64,000 nt of DNA, taken from a virus. This document shows positions 2,530 to 61,500 of this stretch, one piece after another. Location: positions 19,578 through 83,577 of the IMG/VR virus record IMGVR_UViG_3300045996_001613. The stretch is one strand, 5' to 3'. Both the position numbers and the translations under genes were made by a program. The number at the start of each line of letters is the position of its first letter. The first letter of the stretch is position 1. The notes under the pieces were generated by a model, which worked only from the letters and a program-made list of their open reading frames with translations, did no database searches and had not been told where the DNA came from.

Positions 2530-2747
2530 GCATGACTCTGACGGACGTACGCAACGCGGTACCAGCCATGACCGACGGCATGCTGGTGGAGCTATACTGC
2601 CAGTACAGCACCTTTGCCGACCGTAACCCTGACTCCGACGAGGGGCGATACAAGGCGAAAATGGAGATCGTAGACGCGGAGTCTAAGAAGAGGCACCGTC
2701 CACACGTGGACGCGAAGAAGGCGACGAAGTGGGGGTATTGGAAGTGA
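2526..2747 (+). CDS. Small helical-hairpin hypothetical protein
   Basis: GGAGGT SD, ATGA overlap. Confidence 0.7.
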   Translation: MSMTLTDVRNAVPAMTDGMLVELYCQYSTFADRNPDSDEGRYKAKMEIVDAESKKRHRPHVDAKKATKWGYWK

Positions 2748-3472
2748 ACATCGCAGTGCTATTCGACGGCGCAGGGCTCGCACGACTCGGGCTAGAGCAG
2801 GCGGGGCATACGTGCACCGGATACGAGCTAGATCCGTGGAAGCACTACCTCTCGCAGTTCGTGGGCTCGGGGAATTCCGTGCTCGCGGACGTACGCGACG
2901 TGGACCTGTCCCCCTACGATGCAGTGTGGGCATCGCCCCCGTGCCAGTGGCACAGCAGCGCACGCACGCAAGGGGACCCGGTCTCGGGCTTCGCGACCGA
3001 TCTCCTAGAGTGGTCTCTGAACCTCGACGTGGGTGTCCTGTGGGTGGAGAACATCATGAGCCAGACTGCCAGCCTCAATACGTGGGGCACCAAGTACAAC
3101 GCGGCTCAGTTCCTATCCGTCCCCATCCAGAATCGCAACCGCATCGTCGGCGGTCACTATCGCGAGCCGTTTGTGTACGCGAGCTACCGGCGTACGTTCG
3201 CGGGGATCTGCCCCTGCATCACGGCCAGCGAGTACAAGGGCTGCGCCTCCGACACGCGCAGGGCGTCGCGCTACTACGGGCGTCGCCTGACTGTCGGGGA
3301 GTGTGCCGACCATCAGGGGCTCACCATTCCCCCCGAGTGGCACACCGTACCCGAGGGATTCACGCCGGGACGTTGGAGGCAGAATCTCTACGAGGCGATT
3401 GGTAACGGGGTCCCCGTCTACATGGCGCGTGGCTTCGGTGAGATGTACCCGGCGAAATCCAGGGGATTGTAA
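2744..3472 (+). CDS. DNA (cytosine-5) methyltransferase, compact
   Basis: Motif I LFDGAG, IV SPPCQ, VI VENI, VIII QNRNR, IX RRLTVGEC, X IGNGVP; GTGA overlap gives start 2744. Confidence 0.9.
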   Translation: MNIAVLFDGAGLARLGLEQAGHTCTGYELDPWKHYLSQFVGSGNSVLADVRDVDLSPYDAVWASPPCQWHSSARTQGDPVSGFATDLLEWSLNLDVGVLWVENIMSQTASLNTWGTKYNAAQFLSVPIQNRNRIVGGHYREPFVYASYRRTFAGICPCITASEYKGCASDTRRASRYYGRRLTVGECADHQGLTIPPEWHTVPEGFTPGRWRQNLYEAIGNGVPVYMARGFGEMYPAKSRGL

Positions 3473-3493
3473 CTGCCGGCACAAGCTCGAGAT

Positions 3494-3536
3494 TGTGAAC
3501 GAATTCACAGACAACGGTAGCCGAGTAGGAGATAAT
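3494..3536 (+). promoter_or_regulatory. CRP/FNR-type box with downstream -10 (GATAAT)
   Basis: TGTGAACGAATTCACA 3494-3509; GATAAT 3531-3536; 21-nt gap. Confidence 0.6.
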
Positions 3537-3589
3537 GCGGGAGCAATGAGAAGGACAACGACAAGGGGAGAGACATGTGAACTCAGAGG

Positions 3590-3890
3590 GGCGAGCCTGA
3601 CGGTCCTGACCCCAACAGGCGAGACGGTCGGAGTACCAGACCGGCGGGGATGTGGGCGCGAGCCCGTGCATGAAAGAGAGCACACCCAGCGAGGGCCGCT
3701 GGTAAGGAGGCTCACATCCCCTGATGGCGAGGCAGATACGGGCGCAGTGGTGCGAACGGCTCATGGGGCTGATCACCCCGGCAAGCCTAGTAGCACGGTG
3801 AAAATCCCACGGCTAACTGCCGTGCCGATGGCGACAATGGGGCTGATCACCCCGGAGTCGACCGGGAAAGCTGCGCCGGTATCTGCCCCG
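3590..3890 (+). ncRNA. Putative multibranched structured ncRNA (unknown class)
   Basis: Stems GGGGATGT/ACATCCCC and GGCAGATAC/GTATCTGCC enclose several hairpins, including two copies of ATGGGGCTGATCACCCCGG; no credible CDS. Confidence 0.6.
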
Positions 3891-3909
3891 ACCACGAATG
3901 GAGGAGCAC

Positions 3910-4092
3910 ATGAGACCGCCAGCACGACATACGGTGGACGGGGTGCACAAGCGCACCGGGATGATAGTCACGGTGAAGCTGGGCTTCGCCTCTCACCGGG
4001 ATGCGCACAACTACATAACCAAGCACCTGACCGAACTGCACGTCAGGGGAATAGACCCGGTGCACGTCGGGACGGACAGGACGGGCGCGTAA
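3910..4092 (+). CDS. Small hypothetical protein between ncRNAs
   Basis: GGAGGAG SD before ATG 3910; its stop lies inside the mini-tmRNA 5' end. Confidence 0.6.
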   Translation: MRPPARHTVDGVHKRTGMIVTVKLGFASHRDAHNYITKHLTELHVRGIDPVHVGTDRTGA

Positions 4093-4161
4093 TGGGTTCG
4101 ACGGGTGCAACGGGCGCGAGCGCCCAACACCCGGAGGAGAGTTCGATTCTCTCCGCGTCCA
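4083..4161 (+). ncRNA. Mini-tmRNA: tmRNA tRNA-like domain with no mRNA-like domain
   Basis: Acceptor GGGCGCG/CGCGTCC with G3.U70 and A73; unpaired D-region TAATGGGTTCGA; P2 CGGGTG/CACCCG; GAG linker; T-arm GAGAG-TTCGATT-CTCTC. Confidence 0.8.
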
Positions 4162-4164
4162 CTA

Positions 4165-4295
4165 CGAGTCCCGGCATGGTACGGGAGAGACACGCTGAAA
4201 CACCACGCACGGCCACTGCGGTAGTCATGACCCGCATGCTTTCAAAGTGTCTCTGGTTGAATATACGCGACTCTCCCACACCATGCCGGGGCTCG
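4165..4295 (+). ncRNA. Putative rod-like structured ncRNA
   Basis: CGAGTCCCGGCATGGT/ACCATGCCGGGGCTCG 16-bp stem, then GGGAGAG/CTCTCCC, AGAGACAC/GTGTCTCT, TGAAA/TTTCA and GCGG/CCGC. Confidence 0.6.
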
Positions 4296-4327
4296 GCTGT
4301 AGTCAACACCGACCGGGAGGTCTGACC

Positions 4328-4462
4328 GTGGACACTATGGACCTGCACAACTGGCGTGAATGGAGCGCAGAGCAGTTCGCCCTCGACGCGGAGGCCGAGG
4401 TCTCCGAGGACGAGATAGCCGCGAGCTACGCGGCCACGAACCCCCACGAGGAGGTAGAGTAA
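4328..4462 (+). CDS. Small acidic hypothetical protein
   Basis: GGAGGT SD before GTG 4328. Confidence 0.55.
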   Translation: MDTMDLHNWREWSAEQFALDAEAEVSEDEIAASYAATNPHEEVE

Positions 4463-4659
4463 TGACCGGAGTACACGGCCCACTGGTCGTCCGCGAGGTC
4501 TGGATCGTCGGGCCAGTGATGTCGGAGTTCGTCGGCTTCATGAACCGCGTAAATTCCCGCATCAAGGTCGGCAGGATAGCCGAGCTAAATGGGTGGGAGG
4601 TATGGGATCGCGAGATAAACGAGACACACGACACCTTTTGGCTGAGGGAGGCATCATGA
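4462..4659 (+). CDS. Hypothetical protein
   Basis: GGAGGT SD, TAATG coupling. Confidence 0.65.
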   Translation: MTGVHGPLVVREVWIVGPVMSEFVGFMNRVNSRIKVGRIAELNGWEVWDREINETHDTFWLREAS

Positions 4660-4823
4660 CCACCACGAGCATCGCGAAGGCCCGCCAACAACTCAAGCGG
4701 CAGTACCGGAAGATATCGACCGGCGTGCTCTATGGATGGATGGCCGTCTACCTCGTCGAGGACAACGAGTACATGTGCACCACAATCCGCGAGGTACTGC
4801 GGGAGAGGGGCGAGCAGATATGA
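4656..4823 (+). CDS. Small helical-hairpin hypothetical protein
   Basis: GGAGG SD, ATGA overlap. Confidence 0.65.
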   Translation: MTTTSIAKARQQLKRQYRKISTGVLYGWMAVYLVEDNEYMCTTIREVLRERGEQI

Positions 4824-21174: not shown

Positions 21175-22150
21175 ACTCACACACCTAGACCTCTTCGCGG
21201 GTATCGCGGGGTTTACATATGGGTTTGAACGTGCTGGATTAGAGACCGTCGGGTTCTCCGAGATTGACAATTTGCCCAACAGGGTACTAGCTCGTCGATA
21301 TCCGGGGATTCGCAACGAAGGAGACATACATGGAATGGACGGCAGAGACTACCGAGGGGTCGACATCGTCACCTTCGGATCGCCGTGCCAAGACTTCTCA
21401 CTGGCAGGAGAGCGCCGTGGACTTGACGGAGGTAAAAGCGGCATCCTACGCGAAGCCCTCCGAATCGTTCGCGACGCCCGACCACGACTCGCTATTTGGG
21501 AGAACGTCCCCGGTGCCCTTACCTCTAACAAGCGATGGGACTTTGCTGCCGTACTCGACGCGCTGGCTGAACTCGGGGCGATGGACATCGCGTGGCGAGT
21601 CTTGGACGCGCAATTCTTCGGAGTCCCCCAGCGTCGTAAGAGAGTCTTCCTTGTCGCGGATTTTGCAGGATTCCGTGCCGAGAAAATACTTTTTGACTCC
21701 AGTCGGAGCCCGCGGCCTACTCGCACGGTCCGAGCGCAGGGGCAAGAAATTGCCGGTACTCTTGGTGGAGGCTCTGGAGATCGCGGCTGGGCACCGGACA
21801 CCGACCGAATGACGTTTATACCCGTGGGCACGCGCAACGGGGAGCAGAAGTTCATCGTGGAGGACGAGTCCCTACCCATCGCGATACACCTGACGCAGGA
21901 CCCCATACATGGATACATTGCGCCGTGCATGTCCGCGGGAAATAAGCAGGGCTGCGCTACCATCGGGGTCTTCGACGGTGTAGGAGTGCGTCGACTCACG
22001 CCTCTGGAATGCGAGAGGCTGCAGGGCTTCCCGGATGGGTGGACCGATGTGGACGGGGCCAAGGACAATAAGAGATACAAAGCCCTCGGAAATGCTGTGT
22101 CTCCGGCGCAAACGACGTGGCTAGGGGAGCAGGTGGCACATGCCCTATAG
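21167..22150 (+). CDS. DNA (cytosine-5) methyltransferase
   Basis: DLFAGIAG, GSPCQD, WENVPG, PQRRKRVF, RRLTPLECERLQGFP, LGNAV. Confidence 0.95.
   Translation: MSKLTHLDLFAGIAGFTYGFERAGLETVGFSEIDNLPNRVLARRYPGIRNEGDIHGMDGRDYRGVDIVTFGSPCQDFSLAGERRGLDGGKSGILREALRIVRDARPRLAIWENVPGALTSNKRWDFAAVLDALAELGAMDIAWRVLDAQFFGVPQRRKRVFLVADFAGFRAEKILFDSSRSPRPTRTVRAQGQEIAGTLGGGSGDRGWAPDTDRMTFIPVGTRNGEQKFIVEDESLPIAIHLTQDPIHGYIAPCMSAGNKQGCATIGVFDGVGVRRLTPLECERLQGFPDGWTDVDGAKDNKRYKALGNAVSPAQTTWLGEQVAHAL
21330..21812 (+). CDS. Nested alternative-frame protein, M.EcoHK31I beta-polypeptide-like
   Basis: AAGGAG SD 6 nt before ATG; C-terminus SSLSRILQDSVPRKYFLT..GLLARSERRGKKLP..L.EAL. Confidence 0.65.
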   Translation: MEWTAETTEGSTSSPSDRRAKTSHWQESAVDLTEVKAASYAKPSESFATPDHDSLFGRTSPVPLPLTSDGTLLPYSTRWLNSGRWTSRGESWTRNSSESPSVVRESSLSRILQDSVPRKYFLTPVGARGLLARSERRGKKLPVLLVEALEIAAGHRTPTE

Positions 22151-22907
22151 TCGCGGTAAGCCCCTGATACAGATGTGGACCGACGGGTCGGTGCAGAAGC
22201 AGCACGGCCCCGGCGGGTACGGGGTGGTGATCCGATCCGGGTCCTACTACAACGAGACCTCAGGGGGTATGGGTTCCGCAACGAGTCAGCGTATGGAGCT
22301 AGTCGCGGCGTACGAGGGCATCAGGTTTGTCGAGTCCCTGTCTAGGTCAGGCGGCGTGCAGCAGATCGAGGTGCGCTCGGACAGCAAGTACCTCGTCGAG
22401 CAGATCTACTCGCCCAAGGTATTGAGACTCTACCAAGATGGCAGCTTGCATACTATTGCTAACGGGGACATGTGGGACAAGCTGTTGCAGCTACGCCAGT
22501 TCCACAACATCGAGTGGATCAAGGTCCCCGGACACGCGGGCATCGAGGAAAACGAGAGAGCACACGAACTGGCAAGAGAAGCGGTAGAATCAATAGTAGA
22601 GAAGACGAGGCTAGAGAAAGAGAAGGAGCAGAAGGATGTTGACCACGGTCGCAGCCTATATCGCTACATTGTGGAGAAGGGGATTGAAGATCCCGCGAAG
22701 GTCACAGCGACAAATCCTCGCAACAAGAGAAGAGAAGAGGCGAAACTTCTCAATGTTCTTGGACCCGATGCTCATGTCCTTTTCTCCACCACCATCACAA
22801 AGAAGGCACTATGGCAGGGATACGGGAAGCAGGGGAATCAGAGCAAGTATCCGCCGATGGATGTCGTAAGTATATGGGATGTACAACCGATCAAGGAGTG
22901 GGAGTGA
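22140..22907 (+). CDS. rnhA: Ribonuclease HI with C-terminal extension
   Basis: WTDGS, GPGGYG, QRMELVA, SDSKY, NGDMW, WIKVPGHAG..NERAHELA. Confidence 0.9.
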   Translation: MPYSRGKPLIQMWTDGSVQKQHGPGGYGVVIRSGSYYNETSGGMGSATSQRMELVAAYEGIRFVESLSRSGGVQQIEVRSDSKYLVEQIYSPKVLRLYQDGSLHTIANGDMWDKLLQLRQFHNIEWIKVPGHAGIEENERAHELAREAVESIVEKTRLEKEKEQKDVDHGRSLYRYIVEKGIEDPAKVTATNPRNKRREEAKLLNVLGPDAHVLFSTTITKKALWQGYGKQGNQSKYPPMDVVSIWDVQPIKEWE

Positions 22908-23871: not shown

Positions 23872-25278
23872 TTGGCGTATAAGGCGATCATAGCGCGAGT
23901 CTACACCCGTCCACACCCCAACGCGGATCGCATCCAGCTTGGGGAGTGCCGCGGCTATCAGGTAATCGTGGGCAAGGATGTAGAGGACGGGACCCTCGGA
24001 GTCCTGTTCCCTCCGGACGGTCAGTTGTCCCACGAGTTCTGCCTTGCGAATGAATTGTATGCAAGGCACCCCGAGACCGGGGAGAAGATGAAGGGGTTCT
24101 TTGACAAGAACCGTAGGGTCAGGGCTCAGAAGTTTCGCGGAGAGAAGTCAGAGGCGTTCTGGACGGGTCTGGAGAGCATTTACAAGATGGCGGGACTGCG
24201 GGACTGGCGGAAGGATCTACCCGAGGGCAAGGAACTCGACGAGTACCTTGGCATGTCCCTATGTCAGAAGTACGTCACCCCCGCGACGCGCAGGGCTCAG
24301 GCCAACAAACAGCAGGCGGCTCGACGTGAGCTACCGAATTTCCACAAGCACTTCGACACGGATCAGTTGAAGAGGGAGATAGACTACATACCCGAGGGGG
24401 CGTTGCTGTACTTCACGGAGAAGTTACATGGCACGTCTCAGCGCAGCGCATACCTCACGGTCGAGTCTGACCACAAGCTGCCGTGGTTGCAGAGGCTCGG
24501 GTTGTGGTTGAGCCGCATTCCTTTTGCACCCCCAACGCAAGACGAACACCTGCTAGGCACGCGCAACGTAGTCCTCGGTCGGTACGAGGGCAAGAGCTAC
24601 TACGGATCTGAGGGGTTTCGGTATCGGCACCATGACCGCATTAAGGACAAGCTGCACCTTGGAGAGACGGTGTACTACGAGGTTGTCGGGTTTACCGGGC
24701 CTATCTCAGGAGTGCCCGAAGACCCCTTCCGGGCGTGGGACGCGAACGTCGCGCCGATCATGCCCGCGGTCAGCACCAAGGCGCTAAGAGACCATTGGGT
24801 GTCTTCTCCTGATCAGAAGGTTGCCGAAAGCGTCAAGGGCCGGTTTCCCGAGATGTACGGCGACACTATGTGGTACACGTACGGCAATTGGGAAGCGGAC
24901 AGTCCTGCAGCCCCTCGTGCGATGGGTGGATCGGAGATCTACGTCTACCGCATCACGCAGCAGAATGCGCAGGGCATCGTGCTCGACCTATCGTGGGAAC
25001 AGGTGAAGGGACGGTGCGAGGAGTTGGGCGTCCCGCATGTGCCAGAACTGGCGGCACACAAGCACCACTGGAGAACGGAAGCCCTTATGGAACATGCGGA
25101 ACAACTGGCCGAGGGACCCTCGACACTCGACAGGACTCACATACGCGAAGGCGTATGTGTCCGTTGGGAGAAGGGAAAGAAGATAGGTATACTAAAGCAC
25201 AAGTCATTCGAGTTTCTAGTGCTGGAGGGCGTGGTGAAGACCGACGAGAACTATGTAGACTTGGAGGAATCCTCGTGA
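23872..25278 (+). CDS. RNA ligase, Rnl2/DRB0094-like
   Basis: N-terminal PHPNADRIQL domain; motif I TEKLHGTS, YYEVVG, REGVCVR, LKHKS. Confidence 0.9.
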   Translation: MAYKAIIARVYTRPHPNADRIQLGECRGYQVIVGKDVEDGTLGVLFPPDGQLSHEFCLANELYARHPETGEKMKGFFDKNRRVRAQKFRGEKSEAFWTGLESIYKMAGLRDWRKDLPEGKELDEYLGMSLCQKYVTPATRRAQANKQQAARRELPNFHKHFDTDQLKREIDYIPEGALLYFTEKLHGTSQRSAYLTVESDHKLPWLQRLGLWLSRIPFAPPTQDEHLLGTRNVVLGRYEGKSYYGSEGFRYRHHDRIKDKLHLGETVYYEVVGFTGPISGVPEDPFRAWDANVAPIMPAVSTKALRDHWVSSPDQKVAESVKGRFPEMYGDTMWYTYGNWEADSPAAPRAMGGSEIYVYRITQQNAQGIVLDLSWEQVKGRCEELGVPHVPELAAHKHHWRTEALMEHAEQLAEGPSTLDRTHIREGVCVRWEKGKKIGILKHKSFEFLVLEGVVKTDENYVDLEESS

Positions 25279-29003: not shown

Positions 29004-29014
29004 TAGATTCCTAG

Positions 29015-29086
29015 TTGGGTATGTGGGGGTCGAACCCACCATTTCCGAGTTCCGAACCCGGAGTCACACCCCGCGACTTATACCCA
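29015..29086 (-). tRNA. tRNA-Pro(CGG), atypical D-arm and A8
   Basis: Acceptor TGGGTAT/ATACCCA; anticodon arm CCGGG-TTCGGAA-CTCGG; T-arm GTGGG-TTCGACC-CCCAC. Confidence 0.75.
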
Positions 29087-29110
29087 GCGATTACTCTGAA
29101 CGTATATCGC

Positions 29111-29264
29111 TAGGTCGTGGTCGATGTGAGTTTCCTGTGGTGATGTCCATAGGCCCATGATAACACATGATACGGCGCAGGCTCCCTCGTAACACACCTA
29201 CGCCCTGAAGAGGACTCCATACGGGGAGTCGAACCCCACGCCTCTCCACCCGGTCCACACCCTA
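29111..29264 (-). ncRNA. Putative structured RNA with a T-loop hairpin
   Basis: Ends pair (TAGG..GTGG/CCAC..CCTA); GGGG-TTCGACT-CCCC; GGCGTAGG/CCTGCGCC. Confidence 0.45.
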
Positions 29265-29266
29265 CG

Positions 29267-29338
29267 TCGCGGGCTTGGGAATCGAACCCAATATCTCCGG
29301 CGTATGAAACCGGCGAGTTACCATTTCTCCTGCCCGCA
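29267..29338 (-). tRNA. tRNA-Met(CAT), initiator-like, with A8
   Basis: TGCGGGC/GCCCGCG (U1.G72); GAG/CTC D-stem; CCGGT-TTCATAC-GCCGG; TTGGG-TTCGATT-CCCAA. Confidence 0.85.
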
Positions 29339-29340
29339 AT

Positions 29341-29576
29341 GTGCCGGACGCGCCCTCGCTTCCCGGCGTGGGTACCCCGCTATGTCCACCCTTCCGTTTT
29401 ACGGCCAAGGGCACGGCACCCGTCCCAATTTAGGCCGGACTCACCCCTCTGCTATCCGACTTGGGCCACTCCTCTTCACCTCGCGTGACCTCGCCCAACC
29501 GCGGCCTCCCACCATACGTACCGCGTATTTACAGGAACCGTCGGATGTCCCGCAACCCGTCCCACAGTGGAGACTC
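29341..29576 (-). ncRNA. Putative structured ncRNA between tRNA-Asn and tRNA-Met
   Basis: ATCCGAC/GTCGGAT, TTGGGC/GCCCAA, CGCGGT/GCCGCG, GGGTGCC/GGTACCC, GCCGGG/TCCGGC; TGGGACGGGT twice. Confidence 0.5.
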
Positions 29577-29579
29577 GTG

Positions 29580-29652
29580 CTGCGACGGTAGGAATCGAAC
29601 CTACAACCTTCGCCTTAACAGGGCGCTGCTCTGCCTGTTGAGCTACACCGCA
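29580..29652 (-). tRNA. tRNA-Asn(GTT)
   Basis: Canonical cloverleaf: GCTC/GAGC D-stem, CTGTTAA loop, GTAGG-TTCGATT-CCTAC, G73. Confidence 0.93.
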
Positions 29653-52575: not shown

Positions 52576-55500
52576 TTACCTACCGGCCCTATCGTGACTC
52601 TTCATTGTCCTCACTACAATAGCCGCGACCTGCTCGGGCGTTATGCCTCCCGGCGGTGCGCTTCCCCTGAATTCAATTATTATATGCTCTGGTTCGCTCT
52701 TTGTCTTCTTTGTGGCAACATTTTCTGTGGGCGCAGGGGTGGTGGACGCGGGTGGGGCGTTCATCGTATGCATCCCGGTAGATACGGTGGTGCCGATTCC
52801 CGGTGTCTCTGGGTTGCGTGTCGCACGCGCCTCTTCCGCGATGGCGCGACGGAGGTCTAGTTCCTCGCGCATATACGACATCTTGTTCTCGATGGCCGCG
52901 ATCTCTGCCTGATGCGCTGTAATAGCCTGTACCGCCGCGTCCTGTGCCGCATCCTTACCGGCCTCCATGACGTTCACCGTGGCGTCTACAACCTCTCCTA
53001 TAGTGTTCTCAATGCCAATCGCCATGCCAGCGCCGGTCTCTTCTCCGATCTCCTTGAATGCGCCCGACGGAGAGCTTACGGCAAGCTCCCTTCTAGCTGA
53101 CATGTATGCCTCCCACGCCATCTTAGCTGCGGCGGACGCAGCCTCTACCGCGGACTCGGAAATCCCCGCGGCAAGACCTTGACCCGACTGCAGACCCAAG
53201 TAATACTGCTGCCTTGTGAGGTCGGCATTGCGCATGGCTATTCGCGCCGCTTCCGCAAGCCGACGCACTTGCGCCTCCGCCTCTGCCCGACCGTCGGCAA
53301 CGCCCACGGCAAAGCTAGTGCCAGCCTCTATTCCGGCACGGCGCATTTCATATGATGCTATGAGTCGCGCACGATCTGCCATCATCTGTGTAGCGCGTGC
53401 CGCCTCGTACGCCTTGGTATTTACACCTTGAGCCAGACCCAGCGCGACCTGTTGGCCCATTGCGTCCATGACCTGCGAGGGGGAGGAGATCTGGAATCGT
53501 GCGCGAGCCGCGTTAATTGCCGATTCCGCGAGTTTCTGGAATACGTCTATGATCTGCTGTGACCTAGAAATCACGCCTCTCGCGAGTCCGGCCATTGCCT
53601 CCTGCCCCGCGGATTCCATACCCTGCATGCGCATCCGGACCATCCCGGATACGTCTCCGATCTTGACCGCGGCATCCTGCACCTGACTCGCGGCACCCGC
53701 CATCCCCTTAGCGAGTCCGTACATTGCCATGCGGCCCTCGCCCTCCATGCGGTGCAAGTGGTGCTGCACGGCCCTTGTGATGTCCGCGACCTTGCCCGCG
53801 GTCTGCTGGACGACTCCACCCTCGCGGTCCATGCCTCCCGCGATGTCTCCCGGCACACGCCCACCAACTTCGTTTAGGCGCTGGTTAGCAACCGAGGCTT
53901 CCGCGGAAGACCGTACCCCCTCGGCCAGCGCCCCTGACGCATCGTTTACGGCACGCTGATTGTCGTATATACCCTGAGCCATACCCGCGGCGGTCTCTCC
54001 ACCGATGCCCGCGAACACTGTAGACGGCGACTGCACGCCGAGGAGTTTCTTCGCGTAGTCTATTGCACCTGTCATGTTGTTCTTGAGGGAGTCGTAGAAT
54101 CCCTTGATCTTGTCCGCGAATCCCTTCTGCAGACCGTAGACAATCATCTGTCCGATTCCCTCAAAGGTGATCCGGAACGCCTCCCCGAGAGTGTTGGCGT
54201 TGGTGATCTGATTTATGTAATCATTGACCTTCTTCCATCCGTCTTGCAGCCATCTCAACGGCGGGAAGTTATTGGTGGCCCACTCCCAAAAGCGGTGTGC
54301 CATGATCTCAAAGGCACGGCGCAGCCACCCGGCCTTGTCGTCGGAGTTCCAGAAATCCTGCATTATGGACCACATATGGGTTGCCCACTTGACACCCGGA
54401 ACGTGCTCGTATATCCACTGCGCCACCGCGGACACCATGCGCTCAAACCCACGACGCAGCCATGCGCCCTTCTCGTCGGACTGCCAGAACTCCTTCATCT
54501 TGTTCCACTGGTTTACGCCCCACGTATATCCGGGAAGGTGATTGTGCAGGAAGTCCGATACGCGGTCCCGGATTCTCTCAAACCCACGAAGGAGCCAAGC
54601 GCCCTTCTCGTCCGACTGCCAGAAATTGACCATTTTCTGCCACTGGTTGAGTCCCCACTGGTATCCGGGTAGGTGGTTTACAAGGAATGCGTGCACTCGG
54701 TCGCGAATACGCTCAAACCCGCGAAGGAGCCAAGCGCCCTTCTCGTCGGATTGCCAGAAGTTGACCATCTTGTTCCATTGGTTCAGACCCCACTGATAAC
54801 CGGGAAGGTGGTTTGTGAGGAACGCGTGCACCCGGTCGCGAATACGCTCGAATGCACGCGTGAGCCATGTTAGCTTCTCTTCAGATTGCCAGAAATTGAC
54901 CATCTTATTCCACTGGTTCAATCCCCACTGGAATCCGGGCACATTATTGACAATCCACTGCACGACTCGCGTCCGGATGCTCTCAAACGCCCTCAGGAGC
55001 CATCCTAGCTTGTCGTCCGAGTTCCAGAAGGGAGCCATCTTCTGCCACTGGTTCTGCGCCCACTGGAATCCGGGCACGTTATTAACGATCCACGTTACTA
55101 CTCGGGTCTTGATGCCTTCAAAGGCTCGCAGGAGCCATCCCATCTTGTCGTCCGAGTTCCAGAATGGGGCCATCTTCTGCCACTGATTTATAGCCCACTG
55201 TGCACCCGGAACGTTGTTCACAATGAACTGTGCAACTCGTCCCACGATCCCGGTGAACGCACGCCACAGCCAGCCCTGCTTCTCGTCTCCGGTCCAGAAG
55301 TTGACCATCTTTTGCCACTGGTTCCACGCCCACTGTGCACCCGGTACGTTGTTTACGATAAACTGACCGACTCGACTTGCGATAGCAGAGAACGCGGTAA
55401 ACAGCCATCCCAACTTGTCTTCTGACTTCCAGAAATTCGCCATAAGGGACCACATATGCGCAGCCCACTTTGCGCCCGGTACGTTTTGGTAGATCCACTG

Positions 55501-58500
55501 TGCCACGCGAGACGCGATTGCAACAAATGCGGTAAATAGCCAGTTTAGCTTGTCCTCGGACTTCCAGAAGTTCGCCATAAGGGACCACATATGTGTAGCC
55601 CACTTAACGCCCGGAACATTCTGATAGATCCACTGACCGACTCGGCTCGCAATTGCCACGAACGCGGTGAATAGCCAGTTGAGTTTGTCTTCTGACTTCC
55701 AGAAATTCGCCATAATAGACCACATGTGCGTGGCCCACTTGACACCCGGTACGTTCTGATAGATCCACTCGCCCACACGGGCCGCGATAGCCACAAACGC
55801 GGTGAACAGCCAGTTGAGCTTATCTTCTGATCTCCAGAAGTTCATCATCAGGGACCACATGTGATGCGCCCACTTTGCGCCCGGAACATTCTGGTAGATC
55901 CACTCGCCTACGCGAGCCGCGATTGCAGAGAAAGCCGTAAATAGCCATCCCAGCTTATCCTCGGATTTCCAGAAATTAGACATCAGGGACCACATGTAGT
56001 AGGCCCACTTCGCACCGGGCACATTTTGCACAATGAACTGTGCGACACGAGACGCAATGGCGTTGAACCCATTCCACAGCCATCCGAGCTTGTCGTCAGA
56101 TTGCCAGAAGGCTTGCATGTGCTGCCACTGTCTCTGCGCCCACTCGTAACCCGGCAGTCTGGACAATACGCCTTGCGCCCGATTAAGCATCCCCTGGAAT
56201 GCGCCCCACAACCATCCGAGCTTATCTTCAGACTTCCAGAAATTGACCACGGCACCCCATATATTCTGCGCCCACGTTAATAGGGGGTTGACCGTGAGGA
56301 AGAGTATCCCCTGTATGAAGCCCCGTATGATGTCCTTGCCCACCTCCATCGCCTTAGTCGAGGGCGACGATATCCCCAGCCACTTGAGGAGTGCGTTCCA
56401 CGCATTGCCGATCCACTCGATAAACGGTCCGATGAGTGGCATGGCCTCCAGTGCCGCGATTACGCCCGCGAGTAGAGCCGAGACCGCGGATCGCGCCACG
56501 CTCTTCCCGGACTCTCGGTCCTGCTCATAAGTGGCCGTCAGCTTGTCCCAAAACGCCTTGACAATGCCCCCGAGGTCGATGGCACTCCATATTCCCCGCA
56601 GCGCAGCCCACACGATATTTACGAGTACATTGCGATCCTTGTCCCATCCGGCTTTCCATCCCTCGATGAACTTGGAGAAGAACTTCCCGATACCCTCGGA
56701 GATTGCGCCACCAGACACGAGATCCGCGACCAGTAGTATCCAACCCGCAGGTCCCGAGAGGAATCCAAGAGCTTTTCCGATCAAGCTCGGACCGAGTTTG
56801 GCCCCAATTCCCGCGAATACTCCGGGTAGCTTGGAGAGGATATTGCTGACCGCGGGTCCTATTCCCGGCAGCTTGGTGCTGACAAACTTGAGCACGTCGT
56901 CCCACAGGGATGCGATCTTCGGTCCGATATTCTCTATGCCGGGTATCAGCTTCTTTAATACGTTCCAGAAAGTTGTAATAGGACCGGCGCTGAAGATGTT
57001 TGCCAGCTTGGACATTCCCGGTATATTCGCGATGATCTTGCCAAACCATCCGACGAGGTCCCCTAGCAGCGTGCCCAGCTTGGGCAGTATCTTGTCCTTA
57101 AGCAGGTTCCATCCGGCTTCTAGTACACGGTGTCCGCCGACTAGACGCCATACAGCAGCCGCGAGTTTTACGAAGTTTGTTACGATAGCGGTGATAATCC
57201 CGCCACCCATGGCCTTGAACAGGACTACCGCGGCAGCACCTTGCACCACAAACTCACGTATAGGCTTCGGCAGACTGTTGAAGGCTCCTAGTATGTCTGC
57301 GAGGAATCCGAAGAAGCTCGCGAACAGCTTCTCGTTGCCGAAGATCAGGTTGACGATCTTGAACAGTTCGTCCCGGAACCGCTGCACGCCATCGCTTTGA
57401 GACAGCTTGTATAGGAAATCTAGCACCTTGAGTCCGAAGGTCACGATATCGCCAAGTAGTGATGCACCTTCTTCGATTAGCGTATTTATCTCCTCTTGGC
57501 CCTTTGCGGACTCTAGGAAGTCGGCCCAATTGCCGGTAGCACCCACCAGAGCGTCGAGCCACTTCTGGAACATCGGTATTGCGGGCTCGATCACCGCGAG
57601 AAGGATGCGGCCCATGTTGATCGCGATGTCTATAGCCGAACTCACCGCTTCGGGCATGGCTTCAAAGATATTTCTGAGCTTCTCTAGGCGTTCTGTCTCC
57701 GAGAAGGTATCCTTGACCCTGTTCCACCCATCGGAGACCTCCAGAGCCACCTGATACGCGATTCTGCCGAGAAATGGCAGTGTCTCTTCAGCCAACTTGA
57801 GAATATCTACCGCCATGTAGTTCAACACGTCCTGTGCTGGCTTGAATTCTTTCTCAAACTCTTCCGCGAAGCCCTTCCATGCATTCTTCAATGCACGCTG
57901 GCTATCTGTGAGCTTGGTGTTCGTATCGTCCGCGGCCTTGCGCACCTCTTCCTGTGCCTCGCGCAGAGCCTCGGTCGCTCGGGCCAGATCTCGCTGCGCG
58001 TTGGCTATATTGGTCTGTGCGTCGGCTTGCGTATTCAGGAGATTTCTAAGCGAGTCTACGGCTCGCTGCTGCGCGTCCGCCACAGCCTTGTTGCCTTCTA
58101 TGCGAGCGTCGCGTACCCGTTGCTCCGCGTCCTTGATGTTTTCCAGACCGTCCTCAAGAGCCCACATGCGATTACGCTCCGCGGTTTTCAGGTTCTCCAG
58201 ATCGCGGATCATCTGCTCACGAGCCCCCTTGATGAGCTTTTGCCCCTCGACCCACGCGTCACCGACACCCTTGACGGCGTTCTTTACCTCCTCAATGTCC
58301 GTCTTTATACGTTCCTTGCCGTCATGTACAGTGTCGCGGTAGGTGTCGAAGGACTCCTTGGCACGGGCCTGTGCATCCCTGACGTTGTTATTCCCTGTGG
58401 CTACGACCTCCTGCCAACGCTGGAACGCCTCCGCGGAGTTTTCCACCGCCGCCGCGACCGCTTCTTCCCCATCTTGCACCGTCTGCTTCCAAGTGTCGTA

Positions 58501-61500
58501 TACCTCCTTGGACCGAGTGATGGCATCTCTAACCTTCTGCTCAGTCTCGGTTACTACGTTGCGGTATTGCCAGTAGGCTTCTTTGGACTTGTTTACCGCC
58601 TCGCGCACCGCCTGCTCACCCTCAACTACGGTGTTGCGATAGTTCCAAAACGCCTGACGGGATTGCCAGTAGGCTTCCTTTATAGCCTCCTCGCCGTCCT
58701 TGACGGTTTGCCTCCAGTTCCAGAAACTTTCGCGTGCTCGTGCCTGCGCGTCCGCGATCTGCTGCTGACCAGAGGCTACCGTGCGCTGCCACCCCACATA
58801 GGCTTCCGCGGCTCGGGTCTGCGCTTCTGCTACACGCTCGGCTCCGTCCACTATGGTTTGCTGTAGTCGCTGGTTGGCGTCATTCAGCCGGTCTTGCGCC
58901 TCCGCGATGCGCTCTTGTCCCGAGGCTACGGTCTCTTGCCACCTCGCGTAGGTTTCGCGGGCACGGCCCTGCGCGTCGTTGATACGCTCTTGACCATTCG
59001 CGACCGTCTCCTGCCACCGTGCATGCGCTTCCGCGGCGCGTTCTATAACGTCATTCAGTCGCTCTTGGCCGCTGGCTACTGTGTCCTGCCATTGCTTGTA
59101 TGCCTCCGCGGAACGCTTCTGCGCTTCCGCAATGCGTTCCTGTCCACTTGTGACTGTTTCTTGCCATTGTGCATACGCCTCCGCGGTACGCTTCTGCGCG
59201 TCCGCTATACGCTCTTGACCATTCGCGACCGTCTCTTGCCATCTGGCATGTGCGTCCGCAGAGCGTTGCACCGCGTCGTTTACACGCTCTATCCCCGCGT
59301 TTACGGTCTCTTGCCAACGTTCGTAAGACTCAGCCGAACGCTTGTTAGCCTCGGCAATGCGCTCCTGTCCCTCGACCAAGGTTTCGCGGTACTTCTCGTA
59401 GCTCTCGCGGGCGCGTATCTGTAATTCGTTAATGCGCTCCCATCCCTCTTGCGTGACGCGTTGCAAGTTAGTCTGAGCCTGCACTACACGTCGAGCCGCC
59501 TCCACGATGCGCTCATTACCCTCAACCACCGACTCCTGCCAGTTTTCATACGCGTCCGCGGCCCTCTCGTTGGCCTCCGCCACCTTCTCGGCACCCTCTA
59601 GCTGTACTTCCGCGACTTTCGCGGTGGCTTCTGCTAGACGCTTCTGCGCGTCAGTAATTATCTTCGCGGCTTCAACCTGCGCCTTACCTATAGCCTCCTG
59701 AGCCGCGGCACTCTCTATGCGGGCCTGCTGTAGGGCTTTCTCTGCCTCGAATACCGAGCGCACCGCGGCCTGTTGGCGATAGTAGGCTTCCTCAACGGCA
59801 CTACGGGCACGCTGCAACTGGTCCGTGCCACCCTCTCGCGCCTGTTGCAACTCGCCCTCGGCCTCGGCAATATCTATGGCATTCTGTTTTTGTGAGAGTT
59901 GTAGTTTTGCGAGATCCTGCTGCGCGTCGATTATCCCCTGATAGTCCCCCACCGCAGTAGCCTCTGCCAACTGCTGCTGGGCCGCGGCCAAGTCGTACGC
60001 GGTGCCTATCTGATCCTGACGCGCCTTGTCTACATTTAATTCAAGCTGTGCCATCCGGATAGGCTCACCCGACATGACCTGATTGAGTTCTAGCTGTGCA
60101 TCCTTGAACGCTTCGGTGGTGTCGGTCAGATCCCGACGCGCCTCTATTAGCGCATACTCTCGTTCTGTAACATCTGCCGCGGCTTCCGCGGCCTTCTCAT
60201 GGGCGCTCGCGATAACATCTGCGGCACGCTCGTACGCCTCTTCCAGATCGGTTTGAGCCTCGGCCTGATCCTCAATCGCGTCAATGATATCCTCGCGTAC
60301 GTCCTGCTCCACCTTCGCGATCTTTTGCACCGCGTCTTGGTAGTCTTCGTAGTTATCCTCGATGTCCTCGTGCACATCGGCAACCGTTTTGGCAAGGTCC
60401 TTCTCTGCCTCTCGTATATCCATGATGGCTTCCGCGATATTTTCCGCGAGGTCCTGCTGTGCCTTCGCAATGTCGGCCAGGTTGTCTTGATAGGATTCCC
60501 ACGCGTCCTCCGCGGCCTTAGCCGCGTCGATCTCCGCGTCTTTGACATCCTCTATGGTCTCTATGTAGTCTTCCCATGCTTCCGCGTTATTTTCCGCGGC
60601 GTCCTGTTGGGCTTCGGAAATCTCTCCGATGGTCTCTACATAGTCAGCCCACGCTTCCCTGACGTCCTTTGCGACCTCTTCCTCGGTCTCGCGCAGTTCA
60701 TCTAGGGTCTCCATGTAGTCGACCCACGCTTCGGTGTTAGCCTTCGCCGCCTCTGCTTCCGCCTTGCGAAGGTCGTCAATGGTCTCTATATAGTCGACCC
60801 ACGCTTCCGCGTTGGCCTCCGCTATCTCTATCTCGGTATCGCGTACGTCTTCAACCGCGTCTTGGTAATCTTTCCATGCTTCCGCGTTGTCCTTCGCGAC
60901 CTCAGTCTCAACTTTGCCCACTTCCTGAACCGCGGATATGTAGTCGCCCCACGCCTCCGTGTTGTCCTTCTGTGCCTCTTCTTGGGCGTCCAGCAGATCT
61001 GCGATGGCCTCCTCGCGATCTTCCCACGCCTCCGCGGTGGCTTGCGCCGCGTCGATTTCTGCTTCCCGTACACCATCTACCGCTTCAAGGTAATCGCCCC
61101 ATGCGTCAGCGTTCGACTGCGCTACGTCAGCCTCGACCTGCTTCAGATCTGCCAGAGAGTCCTGATAGTCTTTCCATGCATCTTTATTCGCACGCGCTAC
61201 ATCCTGCTCGACCTCTTTCAGGTTTTTAAGACTCTTCTCGTAGTCTTGCCATGCATCTTTGTTAGCAGCCGCGGCCTCCTGCTCAGTCCTCTGCACGTCA
61301 CGGACGCTTTCTTCGTAATCCTGCCACGCCTCTTTCTGCTGTTTGGCCGCGTCGATCCTCGCGTCCTTGATGTCCGCAACAGAGTCTTGGTAGTCCTTCC
61401 ACGCGCCAGCCGAGGCTTCCGCTGCCTCCTTTTCCGCTTCCCCTATGGCTTCACGAGAGTCAATGAAGTCGGACCATGCATCAGCCGCGTCCTTTGCCGC

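Follow-up and report, generated by a model that had tools for sequence, protein, structure and literature searches.

What kind of element occupies a 425-nucleotide (nt) gap between two genes of an uncultured phage, where the sequence is predicted to fold into two elaborate structures? The gap lies in a 64,000-nt window of viral DNA, bases 19578-83577 of the 83,577-bp IMG/VR virus record IMGVR_UViG_3300045996_001613 (genome label G000), between a cytosine methylase gene and a 64-amino-acid (aa) open reading frame (ORF64). The structured stretch itself covers positions 3590-3890; positions below are those of the window unless marked as genome positions. An initial annotation had described this stretch as a multibranched, unclassified non-coding RNA (ncRNA), possibly a protein sponge or a decoy for anticodon nucleases, made together with a reduced transfer-messenger RNA (mini-tmRNA) encoded downstream. 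The element proved to be real, strongly structured and non-coding, and it matched no known family. The description that fits it best is a putative structured leader or processing RNA, of the kind that phages encode next to tRNA-type genes. Its main parts are the following:

3646-3721, plus strand: domain 1, 76 nt, predicted as a four-way junction or as a 12-bp closing stem with two hairpins
3728-3890, plus strand: domain 2, predicted as a 163-nt quasi-palindromic rod centred at about 3809, with outer helices, a central duplex and a 7-bp tip hairpin
3763-3781, plus strand: first copy of the 19-mer ATGGGGCTGATCACCCCGG, with the self-complementary core TGATCA
3837-3855, plus strand: second copy of ATGGGGCTGATCACCCCGG, 74 nt downstream of the first

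The whole stretch folds at -151.2 kcal/mol on the plus strand, compared with a mean of -124.8 kcal/mol for shuffled sequences (z -5.33), and none of 100 shuffles was as good. Domain 2 alone reaches -92.0 kcal/mol (z -6.59, 0/200 shuffles as good) and domain 1 alone -37.2 kcal/mol (z -3.48, 1/200 shuffles as good); the predicted fold is far beyond chance. All of the helices that had been proposed from the sequence, and both 19-nt copies, were recovered in place. When GC-corrected folding energy was compared across the whole 83.6-kb genome, two 240-nt windows on the region ranked 5th and 6th of about 1389, and windows of 160 nt, into which the rod does not fit, left it outside the top 25. It is thus one of several strongly folding places in the genome, not the sole one.

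The outer helix of domain 2 pairs GGCAGATAC (3731-3739) with GTATCTGCC (3879-3887) over 9 bp and is followed by a second outer pairing, GGCGCAG (3741-3747) with CTGCGCC (3871-3877). The outer duplex amounts to 9+8 = 17 bp with one mismatch, and its helices have a pairing probability (P) of 1.00. Further in, the two 19-mers and their flanks form a central duplex of 6+5+6+5 = 22 bp, interrupted by three 1-nt bulges (P ~1.0), and GCACGG (3793-3798) pairs with CCGTGC (3820-3825) in the tip region. All domain 2 helices are concentric about position 3809. Since the two copies pair with each other at P ~1.0, domain 2 is predicted to be one rod of ~160 nt. The 19-mers themselves contribute 5+6+5 bp to the central duplex, and a further 6 bp, CGGCUC/GAGUCG, form beyond them; the rod is therefore more than a by-product of two palindromic sites. 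Duplexes of 17-22 bp with small bulges are in the size range of RNase III substrates, and the predicted rod provides the near-continuous duplex of about two helical turns (~20 bp) that is expected of an RNase III-type site.

The 19-mer ATGGGGCTGATCACCCCGG occurs exactly twice in the window, where 0.01 occurrences were expected, and 0/100 shuffles contained two matches. No further copy of its core was found in the genome at up to two mismatches; at up to three, only two other 15-mers appeared, with three mismatches each (genome 28472 and 22791). It had been proposed that each copy folds as a 5-bp stem with a 7-nt loop, in the geometry of an anticodon arm. The identical copies and the 7-nt loop (C-U-G-A-U-C-A) were borne out, and the stem was not: the isolated 19-mer is predicted to form a 4-bp GGGG/CCCC stem (-6.5 kcal/mol), without the fifth, U-G pair. 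In context the local hairpins had P 0.00 and copy-to-copy pairing P ~1.0; forcing the local hairpins raised the energy from -92.0 to -83.4 kcal/mol, a cost of 8.6 kcal/mol. The anticodon-arm reading is not supported by this comparison, as the two copies pair with each other in the predicted ensemble.

Two other identities for domain 2 were considered and rejected. A miniature inverted-repeat mobile element does not fit a single copy in the 83.6-kb genome with arms absent from the other loci compared; only a possible 3-nt CGA direct repeat flanks the domain. A replication origin was rejected by GC skew, the cumulative extremes being at ~10 kb and 46.5 kb and the element at 23.3 kb.

Domain 1 is smaller and less uniform. 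Its closing helix joins GGGGATGT (3646-3653) to ACATCCCC (3714-3721) and encloses GGGC-GCGA-GCCC (3654-3665), a hairpin with a GCGA tetraloop, together with the helices GTGC (3666-3669) / GCAC (3680-3683) and CCAGCG (3686-3691) / CGCTGG (3697-3702). Two folds are nearly equal, one a four-way junction composed of an 8-bp closing stem, the GCGA-capped hairpin and two more hairpins, the other a 12-bp stem with two hairpins; helix probabilities ranged from 0.39 to 0.76. The domain also has a 10-nt purine loop, AUGAAAGAGA, and a Shine-Dalgarno-like sequence, UAAGGAGG, that is mostly unpaired. A switch working through an anti-Shine-Dalgarno sequence was rejected, there being no CCUCC anywhere in 3540-4330. 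The term 'multibranched' suits domain 1, with the qualification that its closing helix has P ~0.5 in a longer context, and does not suit domain 2, which is predicted as a single rod.

We then compared the stretch with known RNA families. At gathering thresholds, Rfam 15 returned only 3 tRNAs in the whole window. At E<=10, five matches were obtained in 3300-4500, and 0/5 overlapped 3590-3890. The families tested included tmRNA, 6S, signal recognition particle RNA, Y RNA/YrlA, ROOL, GOLLD, OLE, riboswitches and CRISPR repeats, and the stretch belonged to none of them. A piece of a two-piece or full tmRNA was rejected because no Rfam tmRNA signal lay outside 4083-4164. The description of an unclassified ncRNA is consistent with these results: the stretch is non-coding, has above-chance structure and is without an Rfam match.

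The absence of a coding signal was examined in several ways. No frame in 3473-3897 shows the bias in GC content at third codon positions (GC3) of the adjoining genes, confirming that there is a genuine gap in an otherwise packed gene run. A long open frame, 3303-4325, crosses the gap with no stop; its GC3 is 0.55-0.68, compared with ~0.75-0.85 in real genes here, and it runs through the well-supported ORF64 and the mini-tmRNA. Scanning it with HMMER against 1.84 billion representative proteins gave two matches. One was a 49-aa gene call, 100% identical to the last 49 residues of the frame and present only on the 83,577-nt contig; the other was a 1307-aa protein matched over 7 short stretches, which we take as low-complexity. 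Six candidate ORFs on both strands had no Pfam match (E<=0.1). We also looked up ten ORF forms as exact proteins, namely eight across 3116-4322 (six of them entering the gap), ORF64 as called, and the 49-aa ORF P0002; only ORF64 and the 49-aa ORF at 4176-4325 were on record, and none of the looked-up forms entering 3473-3897 was. Translation of the long overlapping frame, named at the outset as an observation that would speak against an RNA, thus has no support from GC3, HMMER, Pfam or exact look-up. Judged by its sequence, the stretch 3590-3890 is non-coding.

Upstream of domain 1 lie the candidate signals for its expression:

3494-3509, strand not given: palindromic box TGTGAACGAATTCACA, one of four such boxes in the genome
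3508-3536, plus strand: promoter-like site CAGACA-17-GATAAT, the sole sigma-70-like site in 3300-4800 (0.3 expected in shuffles)
3540-3645, plus strand: 5' leader, rich in purines, for which little structure is predicted; its last part is a small hairpin

The promoter-like site is directly 3' of the palindrome TGTGAACGAATTCACA, in agreement with the claim that the stretch stands behind a candidate promoter, and transcription would start near 3543. Boxes of the form TGTGAA-N4-TTCACA were found at genome positions 18749, 20825, 23071 and 24752 (window 1248, 3494 and 5175 for the last three), and three of the four have, by eye, a -10-like hexamer ~20 nt downstream (TAGACT, GATAAT, TACACT). The same kind of box is present at ~6628 in L072, a related phage fragment described below; besides being regulatory sites, the boxes may mark joints of recombination. 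No terminator-like site was predicted in 3300-4800. With no predicted terminator before the mini-tmRNA, its co-transcription with the element is plausible, as had been proposed: one transcript from ~3543 could span the element, ORF64, the mini-tmRNA and the second rod listed below.

The leader had, if anything, below-chance structure (3540-3650, z +1.59), and its terminal hairpin pairs CGGTC (3625-3629) with GACCG (3639-3643) at P 0.73. A 15-mer in it, GACCCCAACAGGCGA (3608-3622), is common to L072 (7187-7201); the match is borderline (E 0.09) and may be due to chance. In L072 the 15-mer lies just past a hairpin, 12 nt before the ribosome-binding site of a gene and downstream of the mini-tmRNA of that phage.

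Three features follow the element on the same strand:

3898-4092, plus strand: ORF64, 64 aa, GC3 0.80, with GGAGGAG ahead of an internal ATG at 3910
4083-4164, plus strand: tag-less mini-tmRNA consisting of the tRNA-like domain only (RF00023, 55.7 bits against a gathering threshold of 47, E 6.9e-21)
4165-4295, plus strand: second rod-like hairpin of 131 nt with basal helices of 16 bp and 7 bp (-62.7 kcal/mol, z -5.94)

No relatives of ORF64 were found, only the protein itself being recovered, and the Atlas gave no usable lead (best feature score 0.85, with structure matches without function). In the mini-tmRNA, 312 positions of the RF00023 model are replaced by 20 nt, and the second rod is directly 3' of it. 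The stop codon of ORF64 (TAA, 4090-4092) falls inside the 5' acceptor strand of the mini-tmRNA, which starts at 4083. Excision of the mini-tmRNA at its 5' end would strip ORF64 of this stop, and the RNA and the protein would therefore be mutually exclusive for each transcript. An ORF64 message cut at the mini-tmRNA would itself become a substrate for ribosome rescue. The 49-aa ORF P0002 (4176-4325) lies almost wholly within the 131-nt rod, in the frame of the unsupported ORF 3303-4325, and is probably a spurious gene call.

To place the element among other genomes, we searched several collections. Megablast and blastn against GenBank phages gave no match to the stretch. In IMG/VR, neither a 25-mer of domain 1 nor a loop-based gapped pattern had an exact match (0 each), and the 19-mer had 1, a chance match within the coding sequence of a portal-like gene, where it reads MGLITPE. 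The gapped pattern found 3 loci in JGI metagenomes (L004-L006), all unrelated purine-rich repeats without the helices. Among GTDB genomes a domain 1 21-mer had 0 matches; the 19-mer had 54 single chance matches, 47/54 in an open MGLITP frame, and the longest similarity to the RNA was 37 nt. Four other genomes had only 20-23-nt matches to the 19-mer. BLAST of 3540-4330 against 401 Alphaproteobacteria genomes returned weak matches of 27-52 nt in 2/401 (E ~1e-4 per genome), which are not significant, and a covariance model of domain 1 run over 51 sources (834,540 bases) found the window itself and one match at E 4.4.

Searches with neighbouring features identified one informative relative. A 3' pattern of the mini-tmRNA matched 5 loci in IMG/VR that share only the T-arm/acceptor end. 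The glycosylase used as a single query found no relatives in IMG/VR, and an alignment search with it found 43 loci, of which only L072 was syntenic. L072, a 39-kb fragment, is the closest relative found: its methylase has 80% aa identity, its glycosylase is 61% identical in the alignment search and 67% over the best 141-aa tblastx segment, and the adjoining genes are syntenic. A 134-nt mini-tmRNA of its own is encoded elsewhere in L072, downstream of a box of this type and of a homologue of the window gene 1292-1561. By this comparison the element is an accessory, lineage-specific module, and RNA genes seem to have changed places among the transcription units that the boxes head.

Contigs of four public runs were also aligned to the stretch. 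In the freshwater run X7, a 151-nt contig matched 3603-3729 with 126/127 nt identical and diverged from 3730, exactly at the border between domains 1 and 2; its 23-nt divergent end had 0 matches in IMG/VR. A second X7 contig matched 4036-4164, the end of ORF64 and the mini-tmRNA, with 115/129 identical (14 differences) and continued into a diverged second rod. Both contigs have depth 2 and single-read length, and are a hint rather than proof. If they come from one relative, domain 1 would be far better conserved than the mini-tmRNA, and domain 2 would be replaceable; if they come from two phages, domain 1 may merely have been exchanged recently. In runs X2 and X4, parts of the stretch were without contig cover, and no RNA run was among the runs listed as holding the stretch; neither is evidence either way.

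The structure, the missing coding signal, the promoter-like site and the patchy distribution of the module are the observations from which an explanation can be built. We lean, with rather less than even confidence, towards a transcribed, accessory structured leader RNA in which domain 2 would serve as a double-stranded rod for processing or stability, with domain 1 as a candidate stable RNA. The transcript would start near 3543, at the box and its GATAAT promoter, and run through ORF64, the mini-tmRNA and the second rod. The gap would then supply the highly structured, non-coding 5' portion of a transcription unit rich in RNA. The segment of ORF64 and the mini-tmRNA lies between the two predicted rods (3728-3890 and 4165-4295). 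As double-strand-specific RNase III-type processing or stability elements, these would divide the primary transcript into separate pieces whose ends are protected by hairpins. Domain 1, a compact 76-nt junction with an exposed UAAGGAGG and a purine-rich loop, would be the part likeliest to persist as a stable RNA; that its binding partner belongs to the translation apparatus is our guess. We infer transcription, cleavage, transcript ends, stability and a role in trans from the predicted folds and signals.

If the element is a functional RNA, the ~780 nt behind one promoter would be almost all RNA products (domain 1, the 160-nt rod, the mini-tmRNA and the 131-nt rod). The locus would then illustrate, in compact natural form, how a phage can carry accessory functions made of RNA only, and would give a handle on tag-less tmRNAs during infection. 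As a new RNA class it is not established; its present value is as a starting point for mapping transcripts and for mining metagenomes more deeply.

Several observations weigh against a leader RNA of this kind. The strand asymmetry of the fold is weak, both in domain 2 (-92.0 kcal/mol on the plus strand and -87.4 on the minus strand, with 6 G-U pairs on each) and in domain 1 (-37.2 and -35.4 kcal/mol); the fold alone therefore cannot tell an RNA from a DNA palindrome, or plus from minus. The closing stem of domain 1 drops to P ~0.5 when upstream sequence competes. Across 3570-3840 the GC content at positions congruent to 0 mod 3 is 0.70-0.80, a weak coding-like periodicity; it fits a minus-strand ORF, 3360-3776, which has no Pfam match and no protein record. 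In L072, protein genes come straight after the methylase; neither domain was found there by BLAST, nor domain 1 by the covariance model, the 15-nt identity (E 0.09) being all that was shared. Phages of this group can therefore do without the element. Finally, the searches above found no homologue from which covariation could lend support.

How well do other explanations account for the same observations? One that we consider unlikely is a stand-alone ornate RNA, in which the twin hairpins form and their UGAUCA loops kiss within or between molecules, giving an assembly or a protein sponge. Such a molecule would explain why two exact 19-nt copies are present where 0.01 were expected: a rod needs no exact identity, whereas an identical palindrome is expected if both loops must present it. 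Each copy also folds locally at -6.5 kcal/mol and would form first during transcription, and the phage RNAs ROOL and GOLLD are described as assembling via palindromic kissing loops (PMC12286853). A kinetically trapped twin-hairpin form with kissing loops is possible, as the loops are self-complementary. However, the predicted ensemble argues for the rod: local hairpins have P 0.00, and the rod is more stable by 8.6 kcal/mol in a program that cannot score kissing loops. Furthermore, there was no Rfam match to ROOL, GOLLD or OLE, the element has ~300 nt compared with ~580-800 nt or more, and no homologues were found to show covariation of the loops.

A DNA-level element, which we judge distinctly unlikely, would make the RNA fold a by-product. 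The two near-palindromic 19-bp sites, 74 bp (~7 turns) apart in a 157-bp imperfect palindrome, would be bound by a DNA-binding protein of the phage or the host, as an operator pair, possibly with looping, or would belong to a replication or recombination site. The two strands fold almost equally and have equal G-U counts, two identical palindromic sites are typical of protein-binding sites, and the region sits ahead of the first ORF, behind a promoter that looks regulated; a palindrome present twice is, moreover, automatically complementary to its other copy. Against this, pairing reaches past the 19-mers into the 9+8-bp outer helices, the 6-bp flank and the 7-bp tip, which operators do not need. 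The site is off the cumulative GC-skew extremes, the genome holds no extra core copies at <=2 mismatches, and the adjoining 64-aa protein gave no DNA-binding lead. Domain 1 would also be left unexplained.

It is quite improbable, in our estimate, that the stretch is a functionless by-product, that is, a recent local duplication, or what is left of an inverted repeat where mosaic modules recombined, carried as a passive leader. The absence of the element from L072 and the different placement of the mini-tmRNA module there, behind the same box type, point to module shuffling at the boxes, and the copies are still 19/19 identical, as after a recent duplication. However, for a phage genome as packed as this one, 425 nt of non-coding sequence comes at a cost, and the concentric helices and a separate junction domain would have to arise by chance in spite of a z of -6.6. 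In addition, domain 1 is 126/127 identical in a run from another habitat, compared with ~89% for nearby sequence.

We regard as highly doubtful an extended form of the kissing-loop proposal, in which domain 1 and the twin UGAUCA hairpins make up a small self-associating RNA, a miniature counterpart of the ROOL and GOLLD nanocages. It would come from one transcript with the tag-less mini-tmRNA and the second rod and would form with them an all-RNA counter-measure cassette that disables host ribosome rescue or RNA quality control. If this were true, the mini-tmRNA would titrate SmpB and the other RNAs would titrate further partners.

An anticodon-nuclease decoy, with the twin hairpins mimicking a tRNA anticodon arm through the loop CU-GAU-CA, is very improbable. 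The 7-nt loop, the U at loop position 2 and the GC-rich stem do resemble an anticodon arm, and tRNA damage and its repair would appear to matter to a phage with an RNA ligase and three tRNA genes. However, the local hairpins have P 0.00 in the ensemble and the isolated stem has 4 bp, not 5. By convention tRNAs have U33 and a purine as residue 37; here U33 is present, but the equivalent of position 37 is C. The loop core is a 6-nt palindrome, pointing to pairing over codon-like display, and no phage RNA decoy of this kind was named in the titles and abstracts of the literature matches listed.

That the stretch is protein-coding is scarcely credible, whether through 3303-4325, its 260-aa version from ATG 3546, the minus-strand ORF 3360-3776 or a 24-25-aa ORF (3724-3800) behind UAAGGAGG: the stop-free long frame, an ATG at 3546 near the inferred transcription start, the 0-mod-3 GC of up to 0.70-0.80 in 3570-3840 and UAAGGAGG 13 nt upstream of ATG 3724 are outweighed by a long-frame GC3 of 0.55-0.68 against ~0.75-0.85, its overlap with ORF64 and the mini-tmRNA, the lack of a homologue for it among 1.84 billion representatives, 0 Pfam matches for 6 ORFs with none of these ORF forms on record, and a 12-bp GC-rich closing stem between UAAGGAGG and ATG 3724.

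The genome around the element provides further context. The genes adjoining the structured stretch are all on the plus strand, and the following features bear on the setting:

2729-3472, plus strand: cytosine methylase, 66% identical to that of Rhizobium phage RHph_N17 and matching PHROG methyltransferase families
23872-25278: RNA ligase (PF09414; phrog_968, E 5.3e-58)
22140-22907: RNase H
29014-29652: three phage tRNA genes, Pro-CGG, Met-CAT and Asn-GTT

Together with the mini-tmRNA, the RNA ligase, RNase H and tRNAs suggest that the translation apparatus and the repair of RNA matter to this phage. In the whole genome, CCWGG occurs 25 times where ~234 were expected from base composition and GGCC 309 times where 541 were expected, and GATC is not avoided (468 against 315 expected). 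The shortage of CCWGG and GGCC looks like restriction-site avoidance in a phage that also carries the cytosine methylase at 2729-3472.

The phage is uncultured, has a GC content of 57% and is present in soil metagenomes from several studies. Its 3522-aa protein (52576-63147, minus strand) is a tape measure protein, and the phage is therefore a long-tailed siphovirus; an N4-like phage was rejected on the same ground. A tape measure of 3522 aa implies an exceptionally long tail. Beside it, two proteins of ~1400 aa match PHROGs annotated as 'regulator of chromosome condensation' (RCC1-like repeats). The ends of the record are an exact 127-bp repeat, and this overlap probably marks a circular assembly. 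Its length is typical of an assembler k-mer, and it may show circular assembly only, with no physical terminal repeat.

Finally, we compared the element with the closest known systems. ROOL and GOLLD are phage or prophage RNAs, often found near tRNA islands, that assemble through kissing loops, and their palindromic loop cores switch among GGCC, GAUC and AGCU, in support of intermolecular pairing (PMC12286853). Likeness to ROOL, GOLLD and OLE lies in the phage-borne position of ROOL and GOLLD, often beside tRNA genes, and in palindromic cores: theirs include GAUC and kiss symmetrically, and the loops here would read UGAUCA. Unlike them, the present element has no Rfam match, measures ~300 nt rather than ~580-800 nt or more, and has loops that are predicted to be buried in a rod.

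For the adjoining mini-tmRNA, mycobacteriophage DS6A encodes a tmRNA with the tRNA-like domain (TLD) only; strong inhibition of tmRNA is reported for a similar molecule, possibly through titration of SmpB (PMC4131195). The DS6A 'TLD only' tmRNA is a precedent for the mini-tmRNA and so defines the operon context. The gp33-gp34 gap of DS6A, assumed to hold this gene, is 212 nt long and has no room for a 300-nt structured RNA upstream. As the element is missing beside the mini-tmRNAs of both DS6A and L072, it is not part of a conserved mini-tmRNA module.

Phage T4 encodes the species 1 and 2 RNAs, small stable RNAs, beside its tRNA genes. By an analogy of context only, the present RNA would likewise be structured, co-transcribed with phage tRNA-type genes and released by processing.

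RNase III processing hairpins are known from the polycistronic transcripts of the T7 early region and from the flanking stalks of rRNA and tRNA precursors. Unlike the T7 sites, domain 2 (160 nt) is two to three times longer, contains two identical sub-palindromes and is known here from its predicted fold. As in those systems, long imperfect rods lie between functional units, here bracketing an ORF and a tRNA-like gene, and their predicted duplexes of 17-22 bp are of comparable length.

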